Below, in pieces: positions 9 to 20,652 of a stretch of 32,000 nt of DNA. The stretch's first letter is position 1, and every line of letters begins with the position of its first letter. The notes beneath the pieces were generated by a model. It ran no database searches. It had not been told where the DNA came from and saw only the letters and a program-made list of their open reading frames with translations. The stretch comes from Nanopusillaceae archaeon (GTDB taxonomy: Archaea > Nanobdellota > Nanobdellia > Nanobdellales > Nanobdellaceae): NCBI GenBank assembly GCA_049974095.1, contig JBMFJD010000006.1, positions 27,895 to 59,894 on the forward strand, in the 5' to 3' direction. The translations under genes were made by a program, and so were the position numbers.

Positions 9-221
9 ATGAGACTAGATAGAGAGATGACATTACTCAAGACAAATAGATTACCAATGCCAGAATTAACATTACTATATGATAGGATAATATCTTCTAA
101 TTTGAGCACTATATATAGACTTGTATATTCTAAAGCATATGAGGTACAATATAAAAGCCCAGTTGCTAATGAGTCAACTATAAAGGTCTTAGAAAGGATT
201 GGTGCCTTATTAGAAAAATGA
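9..221 (+). CDS. Hypothetical small protein, possibly 5'-truncated by the window edge
   Basis: 70-aa ORF. Its frame stays open back to nt 3. Its stop overlaps the next ATG (ATGA at 218-221). Confidence 0.4.
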   Translation: MRLDREMTLLKTNRLPMPELTLLYDRIISSNLSTIYRLVYSKAYEVQYKSPVANESTIKVLERIGALLEK

Positions 222-3439: not shown

Positions 3440-3460
3440 AACACATATAAATATTTGTAT
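3440..3460 (+). promoter_or_regulatory. Copy 3 of the promoter/operator-like motif, plus orientation
   Basis: AACACATATAAATATTTGTAT is the reverse complement of the 22-mer with one T missing. It sits in the divergent region between the RHH gene and the secreted-protein operon that starts at 3512. Confidence 0.4.
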
Positions 3461-3511
3461 CAATAATGTTAAACTAAGAATACATAAAAATAAATATCGA
3501 AATATATATTT

Positions 3512-4102
3512 ATGGTAAAAAAAATATTAGCAGCGCTTTTATTAATCATGGCACTATCAATACCAATATTTTCCGAATATGTAGAGGCGAAACTAGTAGG
3601 AGTATATAGCATACAAGTAGGGTCAAATAAGTTAACAATTTCTAATGGTCATGTTGATCTACCATTTATGACAACAAATGGAACACTAGTAGTAGAAACA
3701 AAGCATGGAAACTTTAATATGGTATTTCATGGAGAGATGACAGTAACTCAAGAGGGAACAAATATGACAGTAGTAAAGTTTGTACATGAAAATAGAGTAA
3801 CATATATCAATATAGCTGTATACGAGAATATGACAAAGATAACAGAAAAATTCTTTGAGCACTTTGTACATACATATGGAGTAAATCTAACACAAAACAT
3901 TACAATAAGACCAGTTGATAATGATACATTTGTATTAGAAGCAAAGCAAAATGCTACTGCAATGTTGTTATGGTTTATACCAATACGTGTGGTAATAGGG
4001 GAACAAATGTATGTAAATGCAACTAATGGAAATGTAGAGAAAGTAGTATATATAAGGCCATGGTGGTGGTTCTTAGTATTTGGATATAAGACTGAACAAT
4101 GA
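3512..4102 (+). CDS. Secreted or membrane-associated glycoprotein (signal peptide)
   Basis: The N-terminus MVKKILAALLLIMALSIPIFSEYVEA is signal-peptide-like. Multiple N-x-S/T sequons (NGT, NMT x2, NLT, NIT, NDT, NAT x2). Hydrophobic C-terminus WWWFLVFGY. ATGA overlap with the next gene. Confidence 0.65.
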   Translation: MVKKILAALLLIMALSIPIFSEYVEAKLVGVYSIQVGSNKLTISNGHVDLPFMTTNGTLVVETKHGNFNMVFHGEMTVTQEGTNMTVVKFVHENRVTYINIAVYENMTKITEKFFEHFVHTYGVNLTQNITIRPVDNDTFVLEAKQNATAMLLWFIPIRVVIGEQMYVNATNGNVEKVVYIRPWWWFLVFGYKTEQ

Positions 4103-7100
4103 AAAAGGTTAGATTATTACTTGTATTTTTATTATCTCTATTTTTAGTTAAATCTATCTTTTCTCAAGAATATCCATATACTAATTATTCTATAATTACT
4201 ATAAAAAACAATGTTAACTCTAACCTTTATAATTATCCTGTCTTAATTACAATAAACGATACACAAGGTTTAATACTTAATGGATATTTAAATCCTACAT
4301 GTACTAACTTAATATTCCAACAAAATGGACGGCAATTACCTTATTTTGTTCAAACATGTGGTTATATATCTGTAAATACATCTACAGGATTCAGCAATTC
4401 TACAATATTGCTAAAAGATTATCCATCTATTCCTGCAACTCTATCTCCTATAAACGGATCTTGGTGGTATAATAATACATGGACAGGATCAGCCCTAAAT
4501 GAATATGTTTACATAACATTGGATATTAAAGGTTATGTTTATCCTGTATGGTTAGAGGTAAATACAAGTGGACCTGAATATGCAATATGGGTGAATGGTA
4601 AATATTTATACAATAGTAATCCGTGGAATTTTACATATAATTCTCAACAACTAGCAAATATGACAGATCAATTATTTGATATAACTAATTTTATAGTACA
4701 AAATGGTATAAATAATATATTAATATTCGCTACTAGTAATACTACAAATAATACATTAACATTCAGAATAATAATACCATCTGCAAATGTTACTATAACT
4801 CAAGATGGTGTATATTACTTACCTGGTACAATTTGGGTAAATGTATCATCAATACCTGCTAACAATTATACTACTCTGTATATGCTCTTTACATATCCAA
4901 ATATATCAACGATTACGAATAATTTATCTAATGTATTTATTTACGGATCATATCCTATATCAAATACACATACTAGTACATCTACAACTACAGATGCCTT
5001 TTTTACCTATCAAGGTGCATATGTATATGCTCAGTGGGTATTAAATCCTACATTATACATTGTAAATGATTATAGTACAAATACTTCATACTTTATTACA
5101 CCATATACAATAAATAATATTTCAGTATCAACATATAATGCAGGATGTACAATTAGTGGAGTAAATATATTTTACTATTTGACAACATATATGCCAAGTA
5201 GTATGAGTCTTAGACAATTTGTTACTGTCAGTCAAAATGCTTCTTACTATATACCTTCATATTCTACTGTTAGAATAGGTTTACAAACTCCAATATTCTG
5301 GTTAGATGGATATATATTGAACATAATATTTAATAGAGCGCCAGGAGGATGTGGAAGGATATACGTTATAAGTGGAATGAATGCTTTAGAATTATATGGT
5401 TTTTCTTCTTTAGGAAATTACCCACTATATGGTATACCTGTAAGTTCTGCAAATTATTTACCATCTTCTACAATTACTGGTTATTTTAGAAAATATGTTT
5501 ATCCACCACCTTCAGTATCTATAAATACTGTACTTAATGTAAGTTATCCAATATCTATAAGTATACAATATCCACAGCAAAATTCTACAGTTGTAGTAAT
5601 GCCAGATAATCCAGTAATACAACCAGTAGTTACAATAAATTCTATTGTTCCAATAACTATCTGTAATATGACTCTATATGGTGGTACAAATGTAATCTAT
5701 GATGGTGTATGTACAAATTCAATAAATGTTACTGGGGCATCTCCAGGATACTATACATTACTAGTATCAGCATCAAACCAATATAATTCAACAAATGCTA
5801 GTGTAACATTTTATTTAACATTTGCAAATGGAACATACGGATTCTTTTATGTTTCTTATCCACCTAATGTTCCATCTACACCATTTTATGTAAATGTATC
5901 AACAACATGTACTGGTAATATATGTGCTGCTGGTAAGATACAATTAACAGTTCCACCAGTATGTTATACTCCTATATCAACTGTTGATATAACACAATTA
6001 TTGCCTGGACAAGTATTTAGTACATCATTCATTGTTCAATGTGCATATTCATCCAGTCCTTACAATTTTAATGTTAACGTATATCAATCTGGTAATTTAG
6101 TATACACAAATAATTTCACCTTAGATGGACCAAGATTATCTTTATCATATACTACAACTAATGATACATTATATGTATATGCATATCCATCTGGATGGGG
6201 ACAAAATATAACATTACTAGTTACTGTGAAGCAAGGATGGGTTATAAACAGTACAACTACTCAAAGTCAATTCTATGTAAATGTTTCAGACAATACCCAA
6301 TCATTAATATACACTAGTCCTGTATTGCCAGGACAAACATACACAGTATATGCTAATGTATATTATCCTCAACTATTTGCGACATATCCAGTACAGAGCA
6401 TATTTGTAACAATACAAGCAACTCAACCACCTACTATATATTCAGTTACTTCTCCATCTACTAATTATAATGGATTACCTACGGACATTTGTTATAATGT
6501 TTCAGATCAAGTTGCAGTAACAAGTGTATCTGGATATTATATAAATGGTTTGGGACAGGTAGTATATTTATTTAATAGTACATACTTTAATCAAACTGTA
6601 TATGCATGTACTCCAGTTAATTTAACCCTGGGTAATTATTCTATATATGTGAAAGCATGTGATTATTCTGGTTTATGTTCTATATTTCCACCAGTATCTG
6701 TAAGTATTATTCCATATCCTCAATACAATATTATAATATATCCATCTAATGTATCCGTATTCCATTCATCTCCACAAGTAATAAGTATATATTATTCCCA
6801 TCCATTAGAACAATATACATCATGCACTATAACATCAAATGATGAAATGTTCAATATGAAAGTTACATTATATAATAATACAAATAATACTATTACATTT
6901 TCATTATCTCCAGGAGAATATAACATGTTTATTATATGTAGTTCAAATTATACTGCAATAGCTAAACCAATTGTTATAATATATGATACCATGCCACCAA
7001 TCATAGAAGGATTTAATGTTACAAATAATATTTTATACTTGTATTTATATGATAATATTGGATTAGCATATGCACAATATAATGTTACAGTTGGTAATAC

Positions 7101-7911
7101 TACAAATACATATAATGTTTTGTTATCTGGTACATCATATATATTACAAATACCCTTAGCACTATCATCGATAACAATAGAAGGGTACGTATATGATATA
7201 TCTGGATTATCTGTGCCATTTGTATATTCATATAGCTTAGCTCAGCCGATATCGCCTCAAACTCAAGATGTTACCAAACCAAGCACACAAACAAATATTA
7301 CAAGTACACAAACAAACATTACAAATGTTACTAACTTTACAAATATAACTGTATATCAATCATATCAATCTAATTATATTGCATTATTAATACCAACAAT
7401 AAATGCTACAGTAATACATAAAGGCCTACAAATAACAGCATCAGTTACAGCTAGATATTATCCTGTAAATTGTACAATATATCCATTTAATACAACTATG
7501 TTAATACAAACATCTGCGCCATATACTACAATAATTACACAGAATATAGTCCCCGGTACATATGTTGTATATGCAATCTGTACGGATAGTGTTGGAGATA
7601 TTGCTACATCAAATATGGTTGTATTGAATATTACATCTCAAGATATCTACATGTTTGGAGCATCCGCATTTGTCGGAACGCAAAATGGAATATACAGTAT
7701 ACTGCTATTAGGAGGTGTAGTTGCATTACTTGGATACTTAATGAGATCTAGAGTACTTATTCTAATTGGTGCTGGATTGGCAGCATCGCTTGCACCATTG
7801 TATACTGGTATAATATTAGGACAACCAGTATTTGCTGCAGTAGAGGTTGTAGTTATACTTGCAGGCTTATATGTACTAAATAGATATTTATTATATAATG
7901 CTTTCGAATAA
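4099..7911 (+). CDS. Giant secreted, sequon-rich multi-domain protein: DUF2341-like module split by a galactose-binding-like jelly roll, tandem Ig-like domains, C-terminal TM helices
   Basis: 1270-aa uninterrupted ORF with signal peptide MKKVRLLLVFLLSLFLVKSIFS. I count 16 N-x-S/T sequons in the first 280 residues. Repeated modules of about 90 aa end in patterns such as SPGYYTLLVSASN, LGNYSIYVKACD, SPGEYNMFIICSS and VPGTYVVYAICTD. Three hydrophobic helices at the C-terminus. Confidence 0.85.
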   Translation: MKKVRLLLVFLLSLFLVKSIFSQEYPYTNYSIITIKNNVNSNLYNYPVLITINDTQGLILNGYLNPTCTNLIFQQNGRQLPYFVQTCGYISVNTSTGFSNSTILLKDYPSIPATLSPINGSWWYNNTWTGSALNEYVYITLDIKGYVYPVWLEVNTSGPEYAIWVNGKYLYNSNPWNFTYNSQQLANMTDQLFDITNFIVQNGINNILIFATSNTTNNTLTFRIIIPSANVTITQDGVYYLPGTIWVNVSSIPANNYTTLYMLFTYPNISTITNNLSNVFIYGSYPISNTHTSTSTTTDAFFTYQGAYVYAQWVLNPTLYIVNDYSTNTSYFITPYTINNISVSTYNAGCTISGVNIFYYLTTYMPSSMSLRQFVTVSQNASYYIPSYSTVRIGLQTPIFWLDGYILNIIFNRAPGGCGRIYVISGMNALELYGFSSLGNYPLYGIPVSSANYLPSSTITGYFRKYVYPPPSVSINTVLNVSYPISISIQYPQQNSTVVVMPDNPVIQPVVTINSIVPITICNMTLYGGTNVIYDGVCTNSINVTGASPGYYTLLVSASNQYNSTNASVTFYLTFANGTYGFFYVSYPPNVPSTPFYVNVSTTCTGNICAAGKIQLTVPPVCYTPISTVDITQLLPGQVFSTSFIVQCAYSSSPYNFNVNVYQSGNLVYTNNFTLDGPRLSLSYTTTNDTLYVYAYPSGWGQNITLLVTVKQGWVINSTTTQSQFYVNVSDNTQSLIYTSPVLPGQTYTVYANVYYPQLFATYPVQSIFVTIQATQPPTIYSVTSPSTNYNGLPTDICYNVSDQVAVTSVSGYYINGLGQVVYLFNSTYFNQTVYACTPVNLTLGNYSIYVKACDYSGLCSIFPPVSVSIIPYPQYNIIIYPSNVSVFHSSPQVISIYYSHPLEQYTSCTITSNDEMFNMKVTLYNNTNNTITFSLSPGEYNMFIICSSNYTAIAKPIVIIYDTMPPIIEGFNVTNNILYLYLYDNIGLAYAQYNVTVGNTTNTYNVLLSGTSYILQIPLALSSITIEGYVYDISGLSVPFVYSYSLAQPISPQTQDVTKPSTQTNITSTQTNITNVTNFTNITVYQSYQSNYIALLIPTINATVIHKGLQITASVTARYYPVNCTIYPFNTTMLIQTSAPYTTIITQNIVPGTYVVYAICTDSVGDIATSNMVVLNITSQDIYMFGASAFVGTQNGIYSILLLGGVVALLGYLMRSRVLILIGAGLAASLAPLYTGIILGQPVFAAVEVVVILAGLYVLNRYLLYNAFE
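7285..7326 (+). repeat. Tandem 21-nt repeat x2 inside the CDS, encoding sequon repeats TQTNIT(S/N)
   Basis: ACACAAACAAATATTACAAGT / ACACAAACAAACATTACAAAT, read directly. It lies in a linker KPSTQTNITSTQTNITNVTNFTNIT. Confidence 0.8.
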
Positions 7912-8152
7912 AAAAGATAAAAAAATAGAAGAAGCCGCAAAGCTAATTGCCAGAAAATATAGGTACTCTATGTTAGCAGAATATATATATAGAAACAGGT
8001 TGAAGAATATAGCTAGATTTTTAGGAGTATCTCCTGAGGAAATTGAGAAATCAGAAGCCATCCAGAATTTCTATAAAATGATAAAAGAGAGAAGGTTTGA
8101 AATGGCCAAAAAATATCTTGACTGGTTAATAAAAAATTATGGAAAGAAATAG
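7898..8152 (+). CDS. Small basic helical protein, member of the FLG-motif paralog family (4 copies in the window)
   Basis: 84 aa. IARFLGVSPEEIEKSEAIQNFYKMI aligns with VAKFLGTTPDKVANSRAVRNYILFT of ORF 25833. Overlaps both neighbours by 14 nt. Confidence 0.6.
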   Translation: MLSNKKDKKIEEAAKLIARKYRYSMLAEYIYRNRLKNIARFLGVSPEEIEKSEAIQNFYKMIKERRFEMAKKYLDWLIKNYGKK

Positions 8153-8867
8153 AGTAATAGGATTAAGTATAGATTTAGCAGTATTCATAATATCTGTAGT
8201 AGTATTAGCTTATGCTTGGTATCTTCTATCAGTATTAATATTACAGGGAGCATTGCTACAGTCAATAGTTCAATTACAGGAGCAACAACAAATATACCTA
8301 TATTACATAACATTAGCTCTTACTGCTATGCTATATTATGTAACATCAGCATTGCTCGGTAAGCCATATTCACCAACATATCGTACACTGTTTGATAAAA
8401 AGCAATTGTTATGGGCTATTATATTTATACTAATATATATACCTGGTTATATAGCTGGATTGATAAGAATGGGTATACCACCAATATTAACTGTAGTATA
8501 TGCAATACCATTTGCGATTGTATTAGGTGTAATGGGTTTAGTAGAAAACAGATTCTTTATAGGAACATTAGGGTTCGGTATTAAATATGAGCTAGAGAAA
8601 AGAGATATTAGATTATCACCAATATTAGCTGCAATTTTGGTAGGATTAATTGCAACACTATGGCATTTATATATGTTTGTTAGTTTATTAGTAAATGCAG
8701 CATCTTTATTTGTAATAATACAAGTAGCAATCTCAGTATTTATATTTTTCTTCTTTGGTGCTATAATTAGCTTTGACAATGATAATACATGGACATGGGA
8801 TATAGTGCACTTTATGGTTAATTTTGCAGCAGGCTTATTAGGAGCAAAAGGATTTATAATAATATGA
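8139..8867 (+). CDS. Polytopic membrane protein, possibly a CPBP (CAAX protease/Abi)-type intramembrane protease
   Basis: 242 aa with about 7 TM helices. Motif order LVENRFFIG ... LIATLWHLYMF ... IVHFMVNFAAG resembles the CPBP motifs EExxxR / FxxxH / HxxxN. Only the third motif is a clean match. Confidence 0.6.
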   Translation: MERNRVIGLSIDLAVFIISVVVLAYAWYLLSVLILQGALLQSIVQLQEQQQIYLYYITLALTAMLYYVTSALLGKPYSPTYRTLFDKKQLLWAIIFILIYIPGYIAGLIRMGIPPILTVVYAIPFAIVLGVMGLVENRFFIGTLGFGIKYELEKRDIRLSPILAAILVGLIATLWHLYMFVSLLVNAASLFVIIQVAISVFIFFFFGAIISFDNDNTWTWDIVHFMVNFAAGLLGAKGFIII

Positions 8868-10285
8868 GTGACAAATTAAACATATTTTTGATAGTATTGA
8901 TATTATCCGGTTTTATAATACCAATATTAGTATATGATATATATGTAGCACATTCAAATATAGTATCATGTAAATTTGAATCTAATACTGTAAATGTTGG
9001 AAGTTCAATAAATTATCTATGTTATGGTGTTTATAATTTAACCCAAGGGGACAATCTATTTATAATTCCATTACCTGGTACAGGCAATATAATTAGTTCA
9101 TATATTTCATTTATTAATGTACAGACTCCAATAGTATATGTTAACCTTAATGGTACTGTACCTCCAAACTCGCAAAATGTTCTTCAGTTGTATATACCAT
9201 CAAATGCATATAATATAAATATATATGGAGTATTACAAGGGATATCGTCAAACAATCAGTATCCTTTTAATTCATCAATAACTGGAGGAAATTTTCCATT
9301 ATACTGTAGTCCTTCTTGTATATACAATCAGGGCCTAATAATAAACCAATCTGGTTCATATCAACTTATAGTAAATTCTGGTTATGGAGGTGGAGGTGTA
9401 AACTATAAAATATATGGATCATATAATTTGCCAAATCCAATATATAGAATATTTGTTGGTGGATTAGAAATATTTTCAGGTCAAATATCAGATACCAGAA
9501 CAATACCAATACCGATTAATAAATCATCTACAGTTAGTATAAATGTTGACGGATATCCAAATGCTCAAGTGCTATTCTATATAGAACAGAAATGTTCATT
9601 AACTGGTGGATTTTGGAATTGTTCAGCATCTGTAGATCCATTAAATTCATCTAGATCCTTAATAGTATGTACAACTAATGTACAATCAACCTGTTCATTA
9701 TCAAATATTAATATTGAGATACCATTTAATGTAGAGTACTCTAAATACCTAAGAGATGCTGAAAATATAGAAATTTCGGTTAATGGGGTTAGGGTAAACG
9801 CTGATACTAGAGGATTATACAATCTAGTGCCATACTTTGTAATTTATAATATAAATCAGGGTGATAACTTAGTACAAATATCTTATAGAGTACCTTATAT
9901 AATACCAAAAGCACAAGTGCAAACTGGTGTATGTTTAATTTATCCTCCAAGTATTACTGTATATAAATTATCTACTCAATTACCAGTAAATACTACAATA
10001 AGTATAAAAAATACAGGTAATGTACCAATACAAGTTTCTATATATCCATCATCAATAAAAGCAAATGTATACCCATCTGATACAGTGATACAACCAGGAA
10101 GTACGGTAGATATATTGGTTAGTATTGAGGAAGGTAATAACGGATATATAATAATTGAAGGTTGTTCAGCAACACCTTACAAGTTGCCAGTTTCGGTTGA
10201 GTATATGTCATCAATAGTATCACCATTGATAATGATAATTGGTTTATTGGTATTAATAGGATTAATAGTTGTAAGAAAGGTATGA
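8864..10285 (+). CDS. Secreted sequon-rich beta-sandwich protein with a C-terminal TM anchor
   Basis: 473 aa with an N-terminal hydrophobic anchor/signal (IFLIVLILSGFIIPILVY). The motif YN(L/I)(T/N)QGDNL occurs twice. The C-terminal module TISIKNTGNVPIQVSIYPS...QPGSTVDILVSIEEGNNGYIIIEG is CARDB/NEW3-like. Ends in the TM segment PLIMIIGLLVLIGLIVV plus RKV. Confidence 0.8.
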   Translation: MSDKLNIFLIVLILSGFIIPILVYDIYVAHSNIVSCKFESNTVNVGSSINYLCYGVYNLTQGDNLFIIPLPGTGNIISSYISFINVQTPIVYVNLNGTVPPNSQNVLQLYIPSNAYNINIYGVLQGISSNNQYPFNSSITGGNFPLYCSPSCIYNQGLIINQSGSYQLIVNSGYGGGGVNYKIYGSYNLPNPIYRIFVGGLEIFSGQISDTRTIPIPINKSSTVSINVDGYPNAQVLFYIEQKCSLTGGFWNCSASVDPLNSSRSLIVCTTNVQSTCSLSNINIEIPFNVEYSKYLRDAENIEISVNGVRVNADTRGLYNLVPYFVIYNINQGDNLVQISYRVPYIIPKAQVQTGVCLIYPPSITVYKLSTQLPVNTTISIKNTGNVPIQVSIYPSSIKANVYPSDTVIQPGSTVDILVSIEEGNNGYIIIEGCSATPYKLPVSVEYMSSIVSPLIMIIGLLVLIGLIVVRKV

Positions 10286-10707
10286 TTGTAAAATCAAGCA
10301 ATAGATATTATTTTGTTCAGAATAGAGTTGCTAGAGATATATTAAGTAAACTATCCGATAGAAGATATTACAATATATCTATGTTACAAGATGTGATAGA
10401 AAAATATGGCAGAAAAAAAGTTTATGATACAATAAAATTGTTGAGTAAATATGGATTAATCGAAATAAAAAAGAACTATTTGGGTAGGATATACTTTAGG
10501 AGAAATTATTATAAGTCTAGAATATTTGATATATTACTTAGTATAAATATCATATTATCTACAATGATCTATATATTGGCTCATCAGATCATTAGTTATT
10601 CAAATTTTTTATCATTATATGGATTGTTGATTGGTGTCATATCAAGTATTAGTATATTGTTATTATTCATATTGAGGAAAATATATGACGATTCTGTGGT
10701 AATATAA
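10282..10707 (+). CDS. Membrane-tethered winged-helix (wHTH) protein
   Basis: 141 aa. The N-terminal RDILSKLSDRRYYNISMLQDVIEKYGRKKVYDTIKLLSKYGLIEIKKN...RIYF is wHTH-like. The C-terminal half has two hydrophobic helices (IFDILLSINIILSTMIYILA, LYGLLIGVISSISILLLFIL). Confidence 0.6.
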   Translation: MIVKSSNRYYFVQNRVARDILSKLSDRRYYNISMLQDVIEKYGRKKVYDTIKLLSKYGLIEIKKNYLGRIYFRRNYYKSRIFDILLSINIILSTMIYILAHQIISYSNFLSLYGLLIGVISSISILLLFILRKIYDDSVVI

Positions 10708-10783
10708 AATTTATAAATCTTTTCATTGTACTCAGTTGGTACAAGCATTAGTAATATAAGCGAGTTCCGTATAAATATATACT

Positions 10784-11887
10784 ATGGTATTCAACGGCCA
10801 AGCCAGAAGCAAACAGACAGAGTATCTATTAATAGGAGTATTTCTATTGCTAGTAGGTTACGCAGTATTCCATTATACATCAGCACCACCAGCAGCAGTA
10901 GCACAAGTACAATGTGCACCAGTATTAGCACAAGTATATGGATTAGCTGGTCAGCAAGTAAGTGTACCAGTAAAAGTAGTTGATTCAGTAACAAAGAAAC
11001 CAGCTGCAGGAGCTTCTATATACGTATTTGATACACAGCCATACGGATGGGACTTGCAACAAAGATGGACCTTAATAAGATCTATGGTAGCAGGACAAGT
11101 ACCTAGTGCAATAGTTAGTGATCTAGGTAATGCTTCAATTTCAGTATCATTACCACAACCAAACCAAACAGAAACATTATATATGGTAATACAACATCCA
11201 GGATATTGGTCTGAATTGTATACATTATCTGTAGGATACAATCCAACAGTATCTGCATCTTCAGCACAACAATGTATACAACTATTTCCATATTCAACAG
11301 TACAAAATATTTTAGGAACACTAGTACAAGTACAAGCACAAAAAGTAATTGATGGTCAAACATATCAATTAACAAACTTACAATTATCACCAGTAGGATC
11401 ATTAGTACCATCAATAGGCAACATATCTTTAGGAGTATATAGTTTAGGTACAGCATACTATGCTAAATTACAAACATACTATACTGGAGTCGTAAATGGA
11501 GGATCAATAAGAATAACTGGAATTAAATTTACAACATTAGATAATTTGCAAGATCAAGGAGTAAAACAAATATCAGTACAAATAACATCATCCGGACAAA
11601 CATTATACCAAGGAGTTATATATGATTCTAATAATATAAACTTGCCACTAGGAGATGGACAACAAAATAAAACATATACAGTAAATGTTGGTGGAAACTT
11701 AGGAGTTGTAGAATTACAACAAGGATCCACACTACAGATTCAAGTATCTGTTATAGCAGATGCTAGTTCTGATCCAAATAATTATAATGCAGGATATTTG
11801 AATCAAGGAGAAGCAATATTACAGATACAATTATTGTTGGCGGATCCACAACAAAATAATCCAATATCGCTAGTAGTAACCGGTTAG
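10784..11887 (+). CDS. N-terminally anchored protein with atypical (GC-richer; Q/G/V/A-rich) composition; candidate abundant structural protein
   Basis: 367-aa ORF with TM segment YLLIGVFLLLVGYAVFHY near the N-terminus. Its codon usage leaves three long spurious antisense ORFs. A T5 + T8 tract follows it. Confidence 0.8.
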   Translation: MVFNGQARSKQTEYLLIGVFLLLVGYAVFHYTSAPPAAVAQVQCAPVLAQVYGLAGQQVSVPVKVVDSVTKKPAAGASIYVFDTQPYGWDLQQRWTLIRSMVAGQVPSAIVSDLGNASISVSLPQPNQTETLYMVIQHPGYWSELYTLSVGYNPTVSASSAQQCIQLFPYSTVQNILGTLVQVQAQKVIDGQTYQLTNLQLSPVGSLVPSIGNISLGVYSLGTAYYAKLQTYYTGVVNGGSIRITGIKFTTLDNLQDQGVKQISVQITSSGQTLYQGVIYDSNNINLPLGDGQQNKTYTVNVGGNLGVVELQQGSTLQIQVSVIADASSDPNNYNAGYLNQGEAILQIQLLLADPQQNNPISLVVTG

Positions 11888-11902
11888 ACAAGGCAACACA
11901 TA

Positions 11903-11920
11903 TTTTTAAATGTTTTTTTT
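11903..11920 (+). terminator. T-tract terminator candidate (T5 ... T8)
   Basis: TTTTTAAATGTTTTTTTT lies 16 nt after the stop at 11887. Archaeal termination typically occurs at oligo-T tracts. Confidence 0.4.
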
Positions 11921-11931
11921 AATTATGTTTT

Positions 11932-12537
11932 ATGAAAATAGATAGCATAAAGAAAAAACTAAAGATATCTAAAAATAATAGGAGATATGAAAAATTGAAT
12001 ATATTTTTATTTGGAGTATTGGTTGGGCTACTTTTATTTGCGTTTATATTCATATTATCTGGATATCCACGTACAGTACCTTTTATTAAGCCACTTATCA
12101 ATGTAAAACAACTACCTCCAGGATCTCTGGATATGGTAAATATTAATCATATTTATTATTATTCTGGTGTATTGGATACGTTGTATTTTTACTTTACTAA
12201 TACAAGGATTTGCAGATATGATAACCTTTTTACAGCAATGTTCTATATATCAAATAATGGAATATATAATGATTCGACTATATATTTAATATTTGATAAA
12301 AACCATATAAGAACAGCTGTATACTATAATGGTACATTAGAGTTTTTTGATGTTTCAGCCCCAACCTATATATTTTATCCAAATCAAACAAAAATAATGG
12401 CATGTACTCTACCTAGAGAATTTGGTTATGTAACAAAATGTACGGTTATATATGATAGCGGAACAGAAGCATATACAGATCCTCAAGTTGATGATCTTGT
12501 TGTTAAAAAAGTATTTGCCAATCATAATAATTCATGA
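11932..12537 (+). CDS. Type II-anchored or secreted protein
   Basis: 201 aa. Basic N-terminus (KKKLKISKNNRRYEK), then TM segment LNIFLFGVLVGLLLFAFIFILSG. The ectodomain carries sequons and cysteines. Confidence 0.6.
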   Translation: MKIDSIKKKLKISKNNRRYEKLNIFLFGVLVGLLLFAFIFILSGYPRTVPFIKPLINVKQLPPGSLDMVNINHIYYYSGVLDTLYFYFTNTRICRYDNLFTAMFYISNNGIYNDSTIYLIFDKNHIRTAVYYNGTLEFFDVSAPTYIFYPNQTKIMACTLPREFGYVTKCTVIYDSGTEAYTDPQVDDLVVKKVFANHNNS

Positions 12538-12582
12538 AAAATAAACTATAAGTTTTTAATATATACATAGTAATAATATCTT

Positions 12583-14751
12583 ATGAGGTACTTAGTGTAC
12601 TCAATAATCGTTATAATTGGTATTATATTTTTATCAACAATTTTACCTAGTATGACTATTCATAATACTAGAATAACTGAAAAACAGAGTGAACAGAATT
12701 TAGTTGTCGTACAGCAGACATCTCCAGCAATATCTTATATGTCTCAACCATTTATATCTGGCATATTAACAATTAACAATGAATCCATACCATTTTATTC
12801 ACCAGTAGTTACATTTCCGGGATTGACTTTTATATCAACAGGATCTCCATTATACCCAACAACTTTAACAATTTTTGATAAACCAGTTCCATCGTTATAT
12901 ATTACTGATGACCAAATTGGTACAAATGTATTTGGAACTGTATCTTACTATTTTATGACACATACTAGTACAGACTTATATGAGAATCCTTATTCGTCAA
13001 TAATTGCATATGCTCCAGATTCTGGTTATGTCATGGTAACCTCTTATACAATAGATATATATGATAGTAATAATGTACGTATATCACCTACTGGTATTGG
13101 TATGTCTCTATCTGCTGATGGATTAGGAAACATTTATATGTATGATTCTCAAAAAGCTATTGTTAGACCTTTAGTACCACCAAATTATCTAACCGTATCC
13201 AGTTATTATAAATTTGTTGTAACTAATCTATATGTAGCTGGTATATCTAGTTCTTCACAACTGTCTCAATTATTATCTGCAAACAGCAAATCTACAGAAT
13301 ATTTCAATAGTTTATTTGGTATAAATACAGGATATAATCCAACTGTATCTTTTAATATACCATTTGTAGTATATCCATATTCAGCATCTCAAAAAATAAC
13401 TGAAAGAAATCCAATAACAAATTCTAATTTGAGTGCAACATTCTCCCCATTATTTTTCATACCTCCTGGAAGTACAACATGGACTGACAAGATGGTGTAT
13501 ATACCATATGTGATACCATTGTTTGAATCTCTATCTGCACTACCTCCAAGTACAGTTTATGTTTATCCAAATGGTACATATAAGGCATTATACAATGGTA
13601 TAAAGCCATATAAGATAGATATGCCTGTTATGATTGTTGCTGACGGTAAAATAATAATACTGTCTACTGCAATAACTGGAGTAGATCCATTAACTGGCTA
13701 CTTTATTAGACAACAATATCCAGGACAACAAATAGGGTGGTTTGCTGGTCCAGGAGTACAATGTAGCTATGTGTCTATATCAAATCCGGATGTAAAGCAA
13801 TTATCACCATATTCAGAAGTATTTTATATATCTGATACAGGATATGTATCAGCAACAGGTATAGAAGACTCTATTGTAGTTAATGAGAAGATATTTGTTG
13901 TTGATCCATATAATCAAGTTGCATATTTATTTAATATAACGTTGAATATGACACCACAACAGCAAACAAATAATCCGGCAGCATGTTCATTAAATGTGCA
14001 ACAATCTGGTACTATAGTATCGGTTACAAAATATAACCTGCAAGGAATAATATCATTGCAAAATATGAATAAAATATATATAGACAATGAGTATGCAACC
14101 AAAGGAAAGATATTATTCTATAGCATGGATACATTGGGTAATGTTACTGTATATGAATTGGATCTAAATACAGGATCGATAAAAACATATACTATACAAG
14201 TACCATCTATATATGGAGCAATAGTAAGGTATTCTAATCCAATAGTGCATGGAACAGCTGGTCAGTTATTAACTTATGTATCACAAATTAATGATACATA
14301 CTATATGAATACAGTAATTCCCGCATACATACAAGGAAACATACCATTGCTAAATTCCACACAAATGCCAACAAATTATACATTTGCATATTCATATGCA
14401 GAATTTCCTATAACAATATATTACAATGGTTCTAAATCAGCATCGAATGTTGTTGTAATACTAAATATAACAGATCCACAGATCTTATCTGCTATTGGTA
14501 CACCTACAGCACAAGATATACGTGTGTTTATCAATAATACATATGGAACTGACTACTATGCATACCAAGGATTAACATATTCAATATTACAATACAAACC
14601 AGGCAAATTATTATCAATAGCAATATTGTTGCCATATATAAATCCAGGAAACAATACTATATATATGTATATGGGATATCCATATGCGCAATCTGTAATG
14701 GTACCGGCAAATACGTTATTAAATCAATATCCTGTATTAAACTATGGCTAA
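12583..14751 (+). CDS. Large secreted sequon-rich protein with a C-terminal DUF2341-like domain
   Basis: 722 aa with signal/anchor MRYLVYSIIVIIGIIFLSTILPS. The C-terminus AQDIRVFINNTYGTDYYAYQ...LLSIAILLPYINPGNNTIYMYMGYPYAQS matches the remembered DUF2341 pattern (DiRF ... vWVkvP.i.a..ttiYmYYGn). Confidence 0.8.
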   Translation: MRYLVYSIIVIIGIIFLSTILPSMTIHNTRITEKQSEQNLVVVQQTSPAISYMSQPFISGILTINNESIPFYSPVVTFPGLTFISTGSPLYPTTLTIFDKPVPSLYITDDQIGTNVFGTVSYYFMTHTSTDLYENPYSSIIAYAPDSGYVMVTSYTIDIYDSNNVRISPTGIGMSLSADGLGNIYMYDSQKAIVRPLVPPNYLTVSSYYKFVVTNLYVAGISSSSQLSQLLSANSKSTEYFNSLFGINTGYNPTVSFNIPFVVYPYSASQKITERNPITNSNLSATFSPLFFIPPGSTTWTDKMVYIPYVIPLFESLSALPPSTVYVYPNGTYKALYNGIKPYKIDMPVMIVADGKIIILSTAITGVDPLTGYFIRQQYPGQQIGWFAGPGVQCSYVSISNPDVKQLSPYSEVFYISDTGYVSATGIEDSIVVNEKIFVVDPYNQVAYLFNITLNMTPQQQTNNPAACSLNVQQSGTIVSVTKYNLQGIISLQNMNKIYIDNEYATKGKILFYSMDTLGNVTVYELDLNTGSIKTYTIQVPSIYGAIVRYSNPIVHGTAGQLLTYVSQINDTYYMNTVIPAYIQGNIPLLNSTQMPTNYTFAYSYAEFPITIYYNGSKSASNVVVILNITDPQILSAIGTPTAQDIRVFINNTYGTDYYAYQGLTYSILQYKPGKLLSIAILLPYINPGNNTIYMYMGYPYAQSVMVPANTLLNQYPVLNYG

Positions 14752-17608
14752 AAGAGTATTAGCTTTAATAGGTATTATTTTATTATTTTCTTATAGCATA
14801 TACCCAGATCAATATATAACTGTAATTAGTGGTCAGCTAGGATCAGGATCTCAAGTTAATATATGTTATAATACAACTTCAACAAAACACTATTATATTA
14901 TTCAAAATAATCCATATTTACAGTATTATCCATTATTTGGTGGTATTAATACATACACAGGTAATATATACTTTACGGGATTATTAAATTCAAGGTATTC
15001 ACAATATTCAAATAATACATTAACTTTTATTCATGATATATCAAGTGGTAATACGTTTTTACAATTTGTGTCTCCTGATGGTGCTATATCTGCAAATATA
15101 TTGAATAATCCATACAACATGCTTTCTCCAATAACATTTGTATCAATGCCATCTATACAGTTTACAGGAAATAATGTTACTATATCATATATTGCTATCG
15201 GTAATTCTCCAGGAATATACTCTTATCAATTGGGACAACCTGTAGGTGTATCAAAACAGGTTTATGAATGTCCTGCTCCAATAGTCAATATAATATCACC
15301 AGTTAATGAATCATCATTCAGTTCAGGACAAGTATTTAATCTGACAGTGCAAGATGCACCAGTATATAATAACTTATCTATATCTGCAATACAATATATA
15401 ATACTTGTTAATGACCAAGTCTATACACAAAATATAACTATACCACCCCAACCTTATACTGGGTCTATAAGAAATTTCCCAATAACAATTAATGCTGGAG
15501 GTAATACCACTATAAAAGCCATTGTAGCATATCAATATTCTTCTGGATGTATTGGAATAAATGCTACATCAATAAGTGTATACATTACAGCTCCATTTCA
15601 ATTGGTAATAAATAATATTGAGCCAATAAGAGCTGTACCAAATACTTCAATAGGATACAATGTAATAAGTTCTACAAATTTATCAGTTAAGTTTACATTT
15701 TCTGGTAATGTATTATATCCAACACAGTTGGTCTGTTCAATATCGGCAAATCTATTATCACCTTGTTCAAATGAAACAGGATTATCTTCAATAATTACAT
15801 TATATGGACCAGTAACATATACAGGACCAGAAGTTTCGCCTACAGTGTATTTAAATATGACAAATGCAATACAAGGTATATACAGAGTATCAGTAATATG
15901 TAATATAAGTTCAACAACTCTATCAAAATTTGTAGATATATTATATGCATATAACCCAAATACTTGTAAATTGTTCTGTTCAGCATTAAATGGATACTAT
16001 AATGGAACATATTGTTGTGGCTATGGTGGAGAACAACTACCATCTCAAGTAACTGGATATCCAGACCCAACATATTATAATTCATCAACATGTTCCTTGG
16101 TAAAGTTACAGCCAGGACAATGTGTAAATAATAAAGATGTTCCTCCAGACGGATGGATATGTATAAACTCTACAACTGCAGCATATGTTAATTATTCATG
16201 TAGTGTTAATTATCCAAAGATAGATCCTCTTGCTATAGGACAAATAATACAAAATATAACTACATTAAAAGATTGTGGACCAGATGCAGTATGTTCATAT
16301 GGACAATGTGTACCAATAGGTCAAAATATAACACCATCACTATCAATAGAAGTAATTTATCCACAACAAGAACAAAATATATATGCACCAGATGGAACTA
16401 TATTTGTAGAGTTTATACCAAGGGACAATATACAACCGGAGGTATTATGTAGATTATATAATAATAACGTTATGGTATCTGAGGGAAGGTATGCTAGTGG
16501 AAATATAACAATAGTACAGATACCAGTAAAGTCAGGATTAAATATACTCAATATAACATGTACTGATATATATAATATTACAAATTCTACGATGGTAAGA
16601 TTTATGGTAACAACAGGTTATATAGTTACCTCTCCTAAAGGATGTGGTTTACCTTATGTATGTTTATCACCTACCCAAGCAGCACTTGTAAAATATGATA
16701 TTGTTGGAGGCATGTGTAATTATACCGTAATACAGACTTATAATGCTTCACCAGGGCAATACTGTTTTGGAGGTTATCTAATAAATGCAAGTCAAGTATC
16801 AGTTTCAGAACAATTATTCGGAAAGTCTTGTTCACCAGATTTAATGACAATATTAATACAACAGTTAACACCAACTCAACAAGGAGTAGCAGTAAATCTG
16901 TATCCTATACAAACAGCTAAATATAGATGTATGTTTGGATTATCTATAGAACCAGATCAACTACAATCATTTGATAAAATGATAATACCAGTATGTACTC
17001 CAAATAATACAATAGAAGAATATCAAATATTTGCGCAAAATGGAACAATATTGTTTGAAAAGATTGGTGAGAAACAGTGTAATAATCTATGTGTTGCAGG
17101 ACTTTGTGTACAACCAGGATATATAATACAGCCACCAACTGTACAATTGATTAGTGTACCTAAAAAAGTTGCGGTTGGAGATAATGTAACAGTTTCATTT
17201 ATGGTATCAAGTGCATATCCAACAGCCTATGTACAGATATATGTAGTATCACCAAAGAATTCAACCTTAGTATATAGTGGTGTATTTGAAACTAACAAAT
17301 TGGTAGATGCTACATTTATAATGCCGGATCCAGATCAAGCAGAGATATATGTGTTTGCTCTTGACCCAGCTGGTTTTACAGGTTCATCTTCAGAAGTGGT
17401 AGAATTAACATCTGCTGTTACAACACCAGAAACAGGTCCAACACCTACACCAACTCCTCCAACAGGAGTTGGAGGAGGATTACCTTCTGTAGGAGCAGCA
17501 ATTGCTTCTGCTTTAACCTCACAAGGAGGTCCTAATATCATATTAATACTAATTGCTATAGCTATTGGTTCTGCTGTAGCATACTACTACTTTAGAAAGA
17601 GAAGATAG
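14744..17608 (+). CDS. Large secreted protein: Ig-like domains, two Cys-rich modules, Thr/Pro stalk, C-terminal TM + RKRR
   Basis: 954 aa with signal peptide MAKRVLALIGIILLFSYSIYP. Cys-rich stretches end in CGPDAVCSYGQCVPIG and CNNLCVAGLCVQPG. The C-terminus is TTPETGPTPTPTPPTGVGGGLPS...IILILIAIAIGSAVAYYYFRKRR. Confidence 0.85.
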   Translation: MAKRVLALIGIILLFSYSIYPDQYITVISGQLGSGSQVNICYNTTSTKHYYIIQNNPYLQYYPLFGGINTYTGNIYFTGLLNSRYSQYSNNTLTFIHDISSGNTFLQFVSPDGAISANILNNPYNMLSPITFVSMPSIQFTGNNVTISYIAIGNSPGIYSYQLGQPVGVSKQVYECPAPIVNIISPVNESSFSSGQVFNLTVQDAPVYNNLSISAIQYIILVNDQVYTQNITIPPQPYTGSIRNFPITINAGGNTTIKAIVAYQYSSGCIGINATSISVYITAPFQLVINNIEPIRAVPNTSIGYNVISSTNLSVKFTFSGNVLYPTQLVCSISANLLSPCSNETGLSSIITLYGPVTYTGPEVSPTVYLNMTNAIQGIYRVSVICNISSTTLSKFVDILYAYNPNTCKLFCSALNGYYNGTYCCGYGGEQLPSQVTGYPDPTYYNSSTCSLVKLQPGQCVNNKDVPPDGWICINSTTAAYVNYSCSVNYPKIDPLAIGQIIQNITTLKDCGPDAVCSYGQCVPIGQNITPSLSIEVIYPQQEQNIYAPDGTIFVEFIPRDNIQPEVLCRLYNNNVMVSEGRYASGNITIVQIPVKSGLNILNITCTDIYNITNSTMVRFMVTTGYIVTSPKGCGLPYVCLSPTQAALVKYDIVGGMCNYTVIQTYNASPGQYCFGGYLINASQVSVSEQLFGKSCSPDLMTILIQQLTPTQQGVAVNLYPIQTAKYRCMFGLSIEPDQLQSFDKMIIPVCTPNNTIEEYQIFAQNGTILFEKIGEKQCNNLCVAGLCVQPGYIIQPPTVQLISVPKKVAVGDNVTVSFMVSSAYPTAYVQIYVVSPKNSTLVYSGVFETNKLVDATFIMPDPDQAEIYVFALDPAGFTGSSSEVVELTSAVTTPETGPTPTPTPPTGVGGGLPSVGAAIASALTSQGGPNIILILIAIAIGSAVAYYYFRKRR

Positions 17609-17620
17609 TAGCATGGTTCA

Positions 17621-17627
17621 TTTTTTT
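17621..17627 (+). terminator. T7 tract terminator candidate
   Basis: TTTTTTT lies 13 nt after the stop at 17608, with a further T5 at about 17637. Confidence 0.35.
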
Positions 17628-17668
17628 AGAAATTAACATTTTTATTGATGAAATATTAAATAATTATT

Positions 17669-18109
17669 ATGGTATCTATACTGGATAGAATAAGCGCAAA
17701 AGAAACACTAGTGTTATTTGTAGCATCAGCATTTACAGTATTTCTAGTAGCAGCAATAATCTCAATGTTCGGAGTTAGCAGCACTCTAGGATTTATATTA
17801 TTGGCATTATCAGGAGTAGCATTAGGATTTGTCTTGAGCAGATATGCACCACAAATAGCAGCATATCTAAAGTCACAACCATTAACGGCTATTTTAGCTG
17901 TTTCAGCTTTGTTAGGAGTATCAGGATTTGTAGCTGTATTTCTAGCATTTATACCAACACCATACGCTGCAACAGGTACAATTACATTATCTGCTGCAGC
18001 AATACAATCAGCATTAGGAACAGGAATTAACAATTTTATAACAATGTCACTATCAGGATTTATAATGGGCGTAGGTAGCTATTTCGGAGTGTCAGTATTT
18101 GGTAAATAA
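17669..18109 (+). CDS. Small, very hydrophobic 4-TM protein (A/G/S/V-rich, GC-richer); candidate major virion membrane/capsid protein
   Basis: 146 aa, almost entirely hydrophobic helices (LVLFVASAFTVFLVAAIISMFGV, LGFILLALSGVALGFVL, LTAILAVSALLGVSGFVAVFLAFI, ITMSLSGFIMGVGSYFGVSVFG). It has its own upstream A/T box and follows a terminator. Confidence 0.7.
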   Translation: MVSILDRISAKETLVLFVASAFTVFLVAAIISMFGVSSTLGFILLALSGVALGFVLSRYAPQIAAYLKSQPLTAILAVSALLGVSGFVAVFLAFIPTPYAATGTITLSAAAIQSALGTGINNFITMSLSGFIMGVGSYFGVSVFGK

Positions 18110-18122
18110 CACGTGAGGCTAG

Positions 18123-18833
18123 ATGAATTTAAAATATTTTTTAATAATCCTATCTTTTATATTTATACTAATTAATATATTTTTAGCTGTACTAATATAT
18201 AATTTTATAATTGTATCACCTTCATTTAGTATCTCTTTATCATCTAACTATACATTTCCATATGTAGATACAAAAAATTCATTAATACTACCAGGATCGA
18301 TGGTTGTTTTAGCTACTTCTAATACTCCTGGATTTTCAATTAATTTAGATAGACCTACATTTTTATGGTCTGCTGGAATAGGATACCTGTTATTGTCTTT
18401 ATCAATATTTTTTATAATATTGGGAATAGCATTAATCATAACATATGAAGAAAATAATATTGTTTATGGACTACTATTGATTTTGCTATCACCAATTATT
18501 TTTGCATTATCCATTGTATTTAACTCACTGTCATACCCTGGTGATATCTTATGTTATAAAAAGCAAATACATAATCATTACTCATATATATGCCATAAAT
18601 ATATCTATGGTAATAGTACAAATGTAGTTCTATTGAGAGTATACGATAATTCAACGGAAGTTATACCAATACAAGAGGTAACAGGAAAGATTGTTTATAA
18701 TATTCCACCACCAGTCGGTACATTATTGTTTATATATAAGTCCAGTTTAGATTTTATATCAACTTTATATGATATTATAACAAAAGGTAATATACCTCTA
18801 GGGTATAAGGTAGAATATATTAAAGTAGAATAG
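18123..18833 (+). CDS. Membrane protein (about 4 TM) with a C-terminal soluble domain
   Basis: 236 aa. TM segments YFLIILSFIFILINIFLAVLIYNFIIV, GYLLLSLSIFFIILGIALIITY and LLLILLSPIIFALSIVF. Confidence 0.6.
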   Translation: MNLKYFLIILSFIFILINIFLAVLIYNFIIVSPSFSISLSSNYTFPYVDTKNSLILPGSMVVLATSNTPGFSINLDRPTFLWSAGIGYLLLSLSIFFIILGIALIITYEENNIVYGLLLILLSPIIFALSIVFNSLSYPGDILCYKKQIHNHYSYICHKYIYGNSTNVVLLRVYDNSTEVIPIQEVTGKIVYNIPPPVGTLLFIYKSSLDFISTLYDIITKGNIPLGYKVEYIKVE

Positions 18834-18869
18834 AAAAAACTTTATATTTGTTGAATACATATTTATAGT

Positions 18870-19196
18870 ATGGCGTTATACCATGACAAAATCGTAATGG
18901 GGTGTACAAAAAAAGAGGGAAAACTAGTTTGCTATGCATACGATCTAAGTACGTTACCGTTAGGCGCTGAAGATCCTTCAATGGCTAGAAGAAAATGTGA
19001 AATAACATTTGAGGGTGTTGAACCACAATTTACTTTCAGTGGAGATGGAGGAATGAAATTATGTAATGATTTGCTAGAAAACTTAGGAGAAATAATAAAG
19101 AAATCATCCAATCTCGGTATACCTACGGCACAACTATATAAAATAGCATCTAAGTTAAGTCAATCACAGAATATTAGTGAACAAGGCCAGTCTTAA
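18870..19196 (+). CDS. Hypothetical soluble protein
   Basis: 108-aa ORF with an A/T-rich box upstream (TTTATATTTG...ATATTTATAG). No recognisable motif. Confidence 0.55.
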   Translation: MALYHDKIVMGCTKKEGKLVCYAYDLSTLPLGAEDPSMARRKCEITFEGVEPQFTFSGDGGMKLCNDLLENLGEIIKKSSNLGIPTAQLYKIASKLSQSQNISEQGQS

Positions 19197-19198
19197 TA

Positions 19199-19471
19199 AT
19201 GTTAGCTAATATTTTTATTTTTCAATTATCAGTTATTGCAGATATCATATTATTCGGATTTGGCATATATATGTCATATAGGAATAGAATAACAGAGATA
19301 CCAGATGTTTTACATGCTGTAATGATTGGAATATACTCTTCAGCATTTTTATCATTTATGTTATTTCAAGTTAATCCATTATTTATTATAGGTACTGGTT
19401 TTGATTGGTTTATTTCGTATGTAAGTGGATGGTTAATTGGATTATCAATTAACAAACTTATCTCATCTTAG
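19199..19471 (+). CDS. Small membrane protein (3 TM)
   Basis: 90 aa, starting 2 nt after the previous stop. Hydrophobic helices throughout. Its 3' end overlaps the convergent MCM gene by 14 nt. Confidence 0.5.
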   Translation: MLANIFIFQLSVIADIILFGFGIYMSYRNRITEIPDVLHAVMIGIYSSAFLSFMLFQVNPLFIIGTGFDWFISYVSGWLIGLSINKLISS

Positions 19472-20615: not shown

Positions 20616-20652
20616 AAATAAATATTAAAAATGTTTATAATAAAAATAGTTT

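Follow-up and report, generated by a model that had tools for sequence, protein, structure and literature searches.

We analyzed a 32,000-nt stretch of DNA (hereafter, the window) from a 59,894-bp contig that NCBI places in a Nanopusillaceae metagenome-assembled genome (MAG), focusing on a block of co-directional plus-strand genes at positions 3512–19471. We consider it moderately probable that this block is the surface module, made up of envelope or adhesin proteins, of a ~35-kb, MCM-encoding, virus-like mobile element associated with Nanopusillaceae in hot springs. An earlier note on this DNA had read the gene products as exposed glycoproteins, and that reading is supported by their membrane topology, by an excess of N-glycosylation sequons (N-x-S/T) that is conserved among homologs, and by Ig-like and DUF2341 domains. 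The note had left two roles for such proteins, coating a virion or remodeling the host cell surface. Sequence data cannot separate the two, and a virion envelope is weakly favored over purely cellular display.

Topology and sequons of the block products

The block is 98.6% coding and comprises 14 consecutive genes, as does its NCBI annotation (MGC9133263–276). The co-directional arrangement described earlier stands, but the count of sixteen genes does not; the minus-strand open reading frames (ORFs) inside the block are all shadows of larger plus-strand ORFs. Stop and start codons were said to overlap at many genes, and they do so at 6 of the 13 junctions, by 4, 14, 14, 4, 4, and 8 nt. The three product classes that had been recognized (signal-peptide proteins, polytopic membrane proteins, and small proteins) were borne out by hydropathy analysis, from which all topology classes given here derive. 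ORFs 3512, 4099, and 14744 (ORFs are named by the lower of their two coordinates) encode signal-peptide proteins, and ORFs 8864, 10784, 11932, and 12583 encode N-terminally anchored proteins. Polytopic or small hydrophobic proteins are encoded by ORFs 8139, 17669, 18123, and 19199, to which ORF 10282, with a winged helix-turn-helix (wHTH)-like region and two transmembrane (TM) segments, can be added; the products of ORFs 7898 and 18870 are small and soluble.

C-terminal TM anchors are also present in ORFs 4099, 8864, 14744, and 22044, and the anchors of the latter two precede a short Arg-rich tail. The combination of a signal peptide or anchor with a C-terminal TM segment therefore points to type I membrane protein topology for these four proteins. 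Two genes beyond the block, at 22044–24770 and 26387–27952, had been assigned to the same type, and their topology agrees with that class. Across the window, ~7,300 of the ~10,700 encoded residues (~68%) belong to exported or membrane proteins.

We compared the number of sequons in each large protein with the expectation from 300 composition-preserving shuffles. The 1270-aa product of ORF 4099 contains 53 sequons where 23.9 were expected (z = 6.8), and the earlier count of 16 within its first 280 residues was exact. Sequons also exceeded expectation in ORF 14744 (31 observed, 12.0 expected; z = 6.0), ORF 3512 (8 and 2.0; z = 4.9), and ORF 26387 (18 and 9.6; z = 3.3). The description "sequon-saturated" thus holds beyond composition for these four proteins but not for ORF 8864 (8 and 7.2; z = 0.3), ORF 10784 (4 and 3.2; z = 0.5), ORF 12583 (13 and 9.1; z = 1.5), or ORF 22044 (12 and 8.6; z = 1.4).

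Where present, the excess was retained in homologs. P0002, a homolog of ORF 4099 with 62–64% identity, has 52 sequons, 38 of them in the same alignment columns, corresponding to retention of 72% of the ORF 4099 sequons; sequon Asn residues were 85% conserved, compared with 72% for other Asn residues and 64% for the alignment overall. In the ORF 14744 family, a sequon excess was seen in each of the seven members (z = 3.3–5.9). Because it is kept in homologs, we regard the excess as true and selected for in some block proteins, although not in all, and it could be used to test whether an archaeal mobile element is under selection for a glycan coat.

Conserved core and domain content

Ten related loci (labels L001–L011; 27–38% GC content) were found on short metagenome contigs from ENA, JGI, and Logan assemblies. 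They were taken from the contigs of the seven ORF 14744 homolog clusters, together with L001 and L002, and compared by BLAST matrices. On the basis of these matrices, the 16-kb block resolves into a conserved four-gene core, a lineage-specific tail (17669–19471), and a variable head that includes the giant protein of ORF 4099. The collinear core, consisting of ORFs 10784, 11932, 12583, and 14744 (367, 201, 722, and 954 aa), recurs throughout the family. Its order is kept in L008 and L010, with sizes of ~355, 170, 716, and 949 aa in L008, and L009 is collinear with window positions 12583–20940, the convergent MCM gene included. The surroundings of the core vary: L010 has a homolog of ORF 22044 inside the core block, and in L008 the homologs of ORFs 838, 24772, and 2615 stand after the core block, not before it.

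The first core gene (10784–11887, +) encodes an N-terminally anchored protein, rich in Gln, Val, Gly, and Ala, with two invariant Cys residues and no sequon excess (z = 0.5–0.6); homologs in the same gene order in L008 and L010 share 33% and 35% identity, and a search of the PDB with the family profile returned no match. The second (11932–12537, +) encodes a type II protein with an N-terminal anchor according to hydropathy, and its collinear L008 homolog is 28% identical. The product of the third (12583–14751, +), which is N-terminally anchored, has homologs in L008, L009, L010, and L011; the best conserved part of this family is its C-terminal ~120 aa, which is DUF2341-like. The fourth (14744–17608, +) encodes a type I membrane glycoprotein with a signal peptide, a C-terminal TM segment, and an RKRR tail.

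The ORF 14744 protein has 29 Cys residues in Cys-rich regions, a Thr/Pro linker and, by homology, three Ig-like modules of the Big_7/PKD type. Only seven homolog clusters were recovered in a HMMER scan of 1.84 billion representative proteins. All seven members contain 29–45 Cys residues, several of them invariant, and the six archaeal-type members share the signal peptide, the C-terminal TM helix, and a tail of aromatic and Arg residues (RRR). Big_7/PKD matches in the homologs fall at residues ~177–246, ~517–590, and ~776–815, with Big_7 scores of 40.9 bits (P0022), 29.5 bits (P0021), and 21.6 bits (P0020) relative to a cutoff of 24.1 bits. The window protein itself gave no match, and its full-length alignment to these homologs suggests that it would carry the same modules. 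In a PDB search, the family profile weakly matched PKD and bacterial Ig domains. The most distant homolog, P0024 (E = 1e-5), is encoded by a bacterial genome (L012; GCA_023111095.1, JALGYW010000003.1, 1404–4216), where the adjacent genes contain CHU_C and PorP/SprF domains, a neighborhood of type IX secretion adhesins; from this neighborhood, the shared Ig/Cys-rich region appears to be of a cell-surface adhesin type.

The earlier note had also described repeated beta-sandwich modules of ~90 aa. This description found indirect support in the Ig-like domains at three positions in the ORF 14744 homologs but not in sequence-detectable repeats, which among the large proteins are confined to ORF 22044, where three internal repeats of ~155 aa occur (residues ~164–291, 321–438, and 535–571). 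The giant glycoprotein of ORF 4099 (4099–7911, +) has a signal peptide and a DUF2341-like domain at its N-terminus, three TM helices at its C-terminus, and an all-beta ectodomain in which Ig-like modules are probable and beta-sandwich modules of ~90 aa plausible. Its Pfam matches were weak and comprised DUF2341 (E = 0.002, near the N-terminus) and Y_Y_Y, and a bacterial Ig domain was matched weakly in the PDB. AlphaFold prediction, which had been proposed as a check, was run on this ectodomain with only two sequences as input; the model was all-beta, but its mean predicted local distance difference test (pLDDT) score of 32 makes it unusable.

Pfam, PHROGs, and NCBIfam gave no match at or above a curated cutoff for any module protein, the matches being limited to weak ones to DUF2341, Ig, and Y_Y_Y domains, and core-family profiles gave nothing significant against PDB sequences. 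Nevertheless, DUF2341 (PF10102) recurred. ORF 4099 scored 18.9 bits against a cutoff of 23.4 bits, and a 328-aa L010 protein related to the ORF 26387-type proteins scored 23.0 bits against the same cutoff. Four of five C-terminal domains of the ORF 12583 family matched the domain (best E = 6.4e-4); the window copy had no match and is 39–45% identical to the family members that did. An hhalign comparison of the ORF 4099 and ORF 12583 families was weak (E = 0.018) and aligned the same segment. These repeated, independent matches argue for true remote homology.

Element context and alternative readings

The window is AT-rich (29% GC), and its proteins match exactly those of the NCBI MAG "Nanopusillaceae archaeon", where almost every one carries the label hypothetical. 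Neither tRNA genes nor Rfam families occur in the 32 kb, a look for RNA genes at the right end was also empty, and there are no housekeeping genes. Clear domain matches are limited to an MCM-like ATPase, an Hjc-type resolvase (29049–29372), a MarR-type wHTH protein (20940–21461; Pfam match), and a zinc-ribbon protein. The 385-aa MCM-like AAA+ ATPase (19458–20615, −) matched Pfam MCM (E = 4e-18) and a PHROG DNA helicase, is labeled "AAA family ATPase" by NCBI, and is without the N-terminal MCM domains. Its gene is convergent with the end of the module, and the syntenic L009 counterpart is 56% identical; we presume that it is the replicative helicase of the element. No long direct repeats of the att type were found, and Pfam and PHROG searches found no integrase domain in the window or the related loci.

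Within the same MAG, a 35,048-bp contig carries a copy of ORF 838 with 81% identity, and more distant homologs (41–49% identity) occur in ENA and JGI metagenomes. Pattern scans for the ORF 838, 10784, and 12583 families found none in 185,579 GTDB representative genomes, and scans of IMG/VR found no relatives. Ten window proteins and the MCM-like ATPase had no tblastn match among INPHARED phages and archaeal viruses, where megablast likewise found none, and the ten proteins had no tblastn match among the 72,556 plasmids of PLSDB. The family is sporadic, reshuffled, and present twice in one bin, has its own helicase and resolvase, and carries no cellular genes, which makes a mobile element much likelier than a chromosomal island and upholds the premise, already present in the earlier note, that the DNA is viral or mobile. 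Its absence from IMG/VR can be attributed to the lack of recognizable hallmark genes. In L002 (4114–6476), homologs of the genes at 30273–30776 and 30773–30937 lie 4.8 kb upstream of a homolog of the gene cut by the left edge of the window, and this gene order suggests a circular or partly duplicated unit of ~35.3 kb.

We searched the window and its relatives for virion hallmarks. No capsid, portal, terminase, or packaging ATPase was recognized in the window or the related loci. Within the window, the hallmarks of Caudoviricetes (terminase large subunit, portal, and HK97-fold capsid) had no Pfam or PHROG match, and VP1/VP3, VP3/VP4, and the conserved ATPase or integrase of Fuselloviridae and Pleolipoviridae had no Pfam, PHROG, or tblastn similarity. 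Among the genes of L002 and L008 that are missing from the window are those for a 617-aa membrane glycoprotein, a 381-aa coiled coil, and a 340-aa helical protein, none of which looks like a portal, terminase, or capsid protein. A head-tailed virus was considered on account of a sub-threshold Gp13-like match in L002 (E = 0.0026) and rejected, the matching protein being a coiled coil and its 617-aa neighbor a membrane glycoprotein. An archaeal type IV pilus locus was rejected as well: the window has no PilB/FlaI-type ATPase or TadC/FlaJ platform, only a weak Pilin_N match in ORF 20653. Ordinary S-layer or pilus-locus proteins in a chromosomal setting, which would have spoken against the reading in the earlier note, were not encountered, there being no such Pfam or NCBIfam matches and no such context.

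Several known systems resemble the block in part. The closest published entity is probably NAV1, which we compared by description only and which Munson-McGee, Rooney and Young are said to have reported in J Virol in 2020 as an uncultivated element with a 35.6-kb circular genome made up almost wholly of ORFans and linked to terrestrial hot-spring Nanoarchaeota of Yellowstone. Any likeness would lie in size, with the inferred ~35.3-kb unit and the 35,048-bp sister contig on our side, whereas the contig of the window itself, at 59.9 kb, exceeds the 35.6-kb circle reported for NAV1. Enveloped or pleomorphic archaeal viruses such as Pleolipoviridae (VP4/VP3) and fuselloviruses (the VP4 end-filament) have spike and membrane proteins on virions without a conventional capsid. 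As in the block, their type I glycoproteins combine a signal peptide with a C-terminal anchor and are accompanied by small multi-TM proteins, but one or two spike genes suffice in those viruses, whereas ~10 exported proteins totaling more than 6,000 aa are encoded here.

Elements of the pT26-2/TKV type in Thermococcales and Methanococcales contain a co-directional cluster of ORFan membrane-protein genes beside an AAA+ ATPase, and the authors left the function of that cluster between "conjugation or viral infection" (PMC2926602). The resemblance extends to large membrane proteins with hydrophobic ends, and related elements carry MCM helicases; however, the proteins described here are far larger, sequon-dense, and equipped with Ig/DUF2341 modules, and the host phylum and GC content differ. 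The seven core genes of pT26-2 (t26-5p, t26-6p, and others) and an SSV-type integrase were not found by PLSDB tblastn and among the window domains, the presence of pT26-2 in PLSDB being unconfirmed. Large proteins of methanococcal (Epd-type) type IV pilus loci are marked by DUF2341, and a comparison with PilY1 tip adhesins has been drawn for them (PMC4858521); Yellowstone hot-spring viral contigs also carry DUF2341 proteins, counted there as cell-derived (PMC11003980). Epd-type loci and the block would share large exported archaeal proteins that contain a DUF2341-like domain and for which adhesion has been proposed, but the window has no pilus ATPase, TadC platform, or prepilin peptidase, and its domain matches are sub-threshold. 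When compared with the pT26-2 family, Caudoviricetes, Fuselloviridae and Pleolipoviridae, and archaeal type IV pilus loci, the block fell outside each group, and both its scale (~68% of the coding capacity) and its domain content are unusual for the surface module of a mobile element.

A non-viral, plasmid-type element, in which the cluster would serve as an apparatus for DNA transfer, cell contact, or vesicle formation, as has been suggested for the hydrophobic-protein half of the Thermococcales plasmid pT26-2 or for vesicle-forming haloarchaeal plasmids, would fit the pT26-2-like layout (PMC2926602), the failure to find capsid or packaging genes, and the absence of the family from IMG/VR. 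We rate this explanation as unlikely: no sequence similarity to any PLSDB plasmid was found, no transfer ATPase of the VirB4, TraG, or FtsK type and no integrase is encoded in the window, and dense, conserved sequons together with Ig/DUF2341 domains suit an exposed recognition layer better than a conduit. A similarly low probability, given independently of function, attaches to the possibility that the module has the function we propose in the wrong host, namely another low-GC thermoacidophile such as a member of Sulfolobales, from which the contig was mis-binned by composition or coverage. Surface proteins dense in sequons are characteristic of Sulfolobales and of the viruses that infect them, a GC content of 27–38% would also suit Sulfolobales viruses, and the host link rests on MAG binning only; on the other side, tblastn linked no deposited virus or plasmid of Sulfolobales to the window, two related contigs occur in the same nanoarchaeal MAG, and the inferred unit size agrees with that reported for the nanoarchaeal virus NAV1 (35.6 kb).

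That the block is an ordinary, non-mobile chromosomal island encoding the adhesins or S-layer-associated proteins with which the nanoarchaeon attaches to its host archaeon appears to us very unlikely. The core families are not in the 185,579 GTDB representative genomes; the cluster travels with the MCM-like helicase, Hjc, and wHTH genes in an order that is reshuffled among relatives; two divergent copies are present in one MAG; and 32 kb of a normally very compact genome hold zero housekeeping genes. These observations have to be set against the binning of the contig in a Nanopusillaceae MAG, the fast-evolving hypothetical surface proteins of Nanoarchaeota (PMC6142677), the surface glycans of Nanopusillus cells and their heavy investment in glycosylation (PMC4935971), and the DUF2341 proteins of cellular pilus loci (PMC4858521).

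The reading that we prefer, a surface module of a virus-like element, has evidence weighing against it too. With no capsid or packaging gene identified, a virion is inferred rather than demonstrated, and the lack of relatives in IMG/VR indicates that standard pipelines do not call the family viral. The DUF2341 matches all lie below or at the Pfam gathering threshold, and neither of the two structure predictions, for the ORF 838 family and the ORF 4099 ectodomain, produced an informative fold. Integration, circularity, and the host link depend on binning and on inference from relatives. Finally, the truncated gene at 30773–30937 and the frameshifted stretch at ~31018–31493 (see below) suggest that this copy of the element may be partly decayed.

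If the block is such a surface module, it would be transcribed from the motif-bearing promoter upstream of its first gene, possibly with internal TATA-like starts in the four larger gaps. Its products would leave the cytoplasm through the Sec system of the host, receive N-glycans from the host oligosaccharyltransferase, become stabilized by disulfides, and be displayed on a membrane; Nanopusillus cells are known to carry surface glycans and to devote much to glycosylation (PMC4935971). The core set of 367-, 201-, 722-, and 954-aa proteins could then form the attachment or entry complex of a particle or of the carrier cell; the 1270-aa DUF2341/Ig protein and the rest of the variable cassette might provide receptor specificity or a glycan shield; and the small hydrophobic proteins may be membrane components of the same surface structure.

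We also put forward, as a tentative possibility, that these loci belong to enveloped viruses of a new family that is associated with DPANN nanoarchaea and either lacks a capsid or has one of a novel kind, or else to vesicle-borne elements of these archaea. Such a family would have a conserved four-protein attachment core, a swappable giant-adhesin cassette, and about two thirds of its coding capacity in glycosylated adhesins. Since the carrier is itself an ectosymbiont that has to adhere to another archaeon, adhesins of the element could alter which host cell the nanoarchaeon attaches to; if true, the element would be a mobile cassette for host range in a parasite system of three levels. Almost nothing is known of the viruses and mobile elements of DPANN archaea, and how nanoarchaea recognize and hold their hosts is an open question. 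Alongside a minimal replication set, the element family has a conserved and disproportionately large repertoire of adhesin-like, glycosylated membrane proteins, which are candidates for virion or cell–cell attachment in the cultivable Nanopusillus–Acidilobus system.

Variable head, tail, and neighboring genes

The variable head (3512–10707) encodes proteins of 196, 1270, 84, 242, 473, and 141 aa and is present as a segment only in the close relatives L001 and L003. Its first gene (3512–4102, +) encodes the 196-aa, sequon-enriched signal-peptide protein, with an N-terminal hydrophobic segment and homologs in L001 (67% identity), L003 (75%), and L002 (26%). Downstream of ORF 4099 lies the gene for a charged helical protein of 84 aa (7898–8152, +; L001 homolog 46% identical). 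It belongs to a paralog family of charged helical proteins of 73–90 aa, the other members of which are encoded at 25562–25807, 25833–26054, and 26107–26328 and at 4741–4989 of L001, and the paralogs share the motif "..A.FLG..P..V..S.A..". Each adjoins a large exported protein of the DUF2341 type (ORF 4099 or ORF 26387), and they could be dedicated chaperones or regulators.

The 242-aa polytopic membrane protein of ORF 8139 (8139–8867, +) has ~7 TM segments by hydropathy, no sequons, and no Pfam, PHROG, or NCBIfam match. We considered a CPBP/Rce1-type intramembrane protease on account of an HxxxN motif (HFMVN) with an upstream conserved His and rejected it, as EExxxR is absent and there is no family match. 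By hydropathy, the 473-aa protein of ORF 8864 (8864–10285, +) has a signal or anchor segment at its N-terminus and a TM segment at its C-terminus; its beta-rich ectodomain is not enriched in sequons, and weak Pfam matches of the PapD and Ig-like Cep192 type were obtained. The last gene of the head (10282–10707, +) encodes a 141-aa protein in which a winged-helix-like N-terminal part, with weak wHTH-type Pfam matches, precedes two predicted C-terminal TM segments.

The tail opens with ORF 17669 (17669–18109, +), which encodes a 146-aa, very hydrophobic membrane protein rich in Ala, Gly, Ser, and Val, has homologs in L007 and L009, and lies in the highest-GC part of the module. It resembles core ORF 10784 in that both occupy higher-GC stretches of the block, are rich in Ala, Gly, Val, and Gln, and have no sequon excess, unlike their neighbors; the two proteins are candidates for abundant, tightly packed structural components. 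Three genes for proteins of 236 aa (3 TM), 108 aa (soluble), and 90 aa (2 TM), classed by hydropathy, close the block (18123–19471, +), and their order is kept in L009 at 44–54% identity.

A 22-nt promoter-like motif with a TATA-like core, AACACATATAAATATTTGTATC, lies ~50 nt 5′ of the first module gene (3440–3461, +). Copies of the motif (AACACATATAAATATTTGTTAT) occur at 2619–2640 (−), 3440–3461 (+), 25470–25491 (−), and 28278–28299 (−); these are four matches with at most three mismatches, compared with 0.01 expected from shuffles, and all four are directly 5′ of a start codon. This arrangement suggests an element-specific promoter or operator common to the four sites. From the copy at 25470–25491, the real start of the ORF at 24772–25755 (−) may be the Met codon at 25458.

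The resulting 228-aa protein (24772–25458, −) is the most conserved between distant family members, with 51% identity to its L008 counterpart (13641–14333) compared with 25–35% elsewhere. It had no Pfam, PHROG, or PDB-sequence match, and its DIDxY and SASGTGFRLE motifs recall motifs I and II of primase-polymerases, with Arg in place of His; it may be the replication initiator of the element. Another set present in all relatives is a trio at 218–841 (+), 838–1929, and 1926–2582 (−) that encodes a 5-TM protein, a 363-aa soluble protein, and a 6-TM protein, the 6-TM gene being on the opposite strand. The soluble protein (ORF 838) ends in an Arg-rich tail, KPRRRKRR; in the model of its family only an N-terminal helical bundle is confident (mean pLDDT 56), and Foldseek searches with this model against the PDB and BFVD gave no match below E = 0.1.

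At the right end of the window, the gene at 30273–30776 encodes a 167-aa, coiled-coil-like protein with 63% identity to an L002 gene product. The adjacent ORF at 30773–30937 corresponds to the first 55 residues of the 617-aa membrane glycoprotein of L002 and ends where the TM segment would begin, and homology to L002 stops at position 30937. Beyond it, an ORF at 31018–31110 is followed in another frame by an open stretch to 31493 that lacks a start codon; the whole looks like one frameshifted gene of ~155 aa, whether through pseudogenization, an assembly error, or recoding.

Near the MCM-like gene, the 96-aa ORF at 20653–20943 has a weak match to the archaeal type IV Pilin_N domain (E = 0.005), with an N-terminus containing SIRA/YVLLALVLLL, and no pilus assembly genes are found near it. 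Of the two outlying genes of the same type as the block, ORF 22044 (22044–24770, +) encodes a 908-aa type I membrane protein that is homologous (31% identity) to the 773-aa protein inside the L010 core block, and ORF 26387 (26387–27952, +) encodes a 521-aa, sequon-enriched signal-peptide protein with weak similarity to DUF2341-type proteins of L002 and L008. In L002 (13186–13964), a called 75-aa gene and a 178-aa fragment look like one split DUF2341-type protein, the 75-aa product ending in a typical DUF2341 N-terminal motif.

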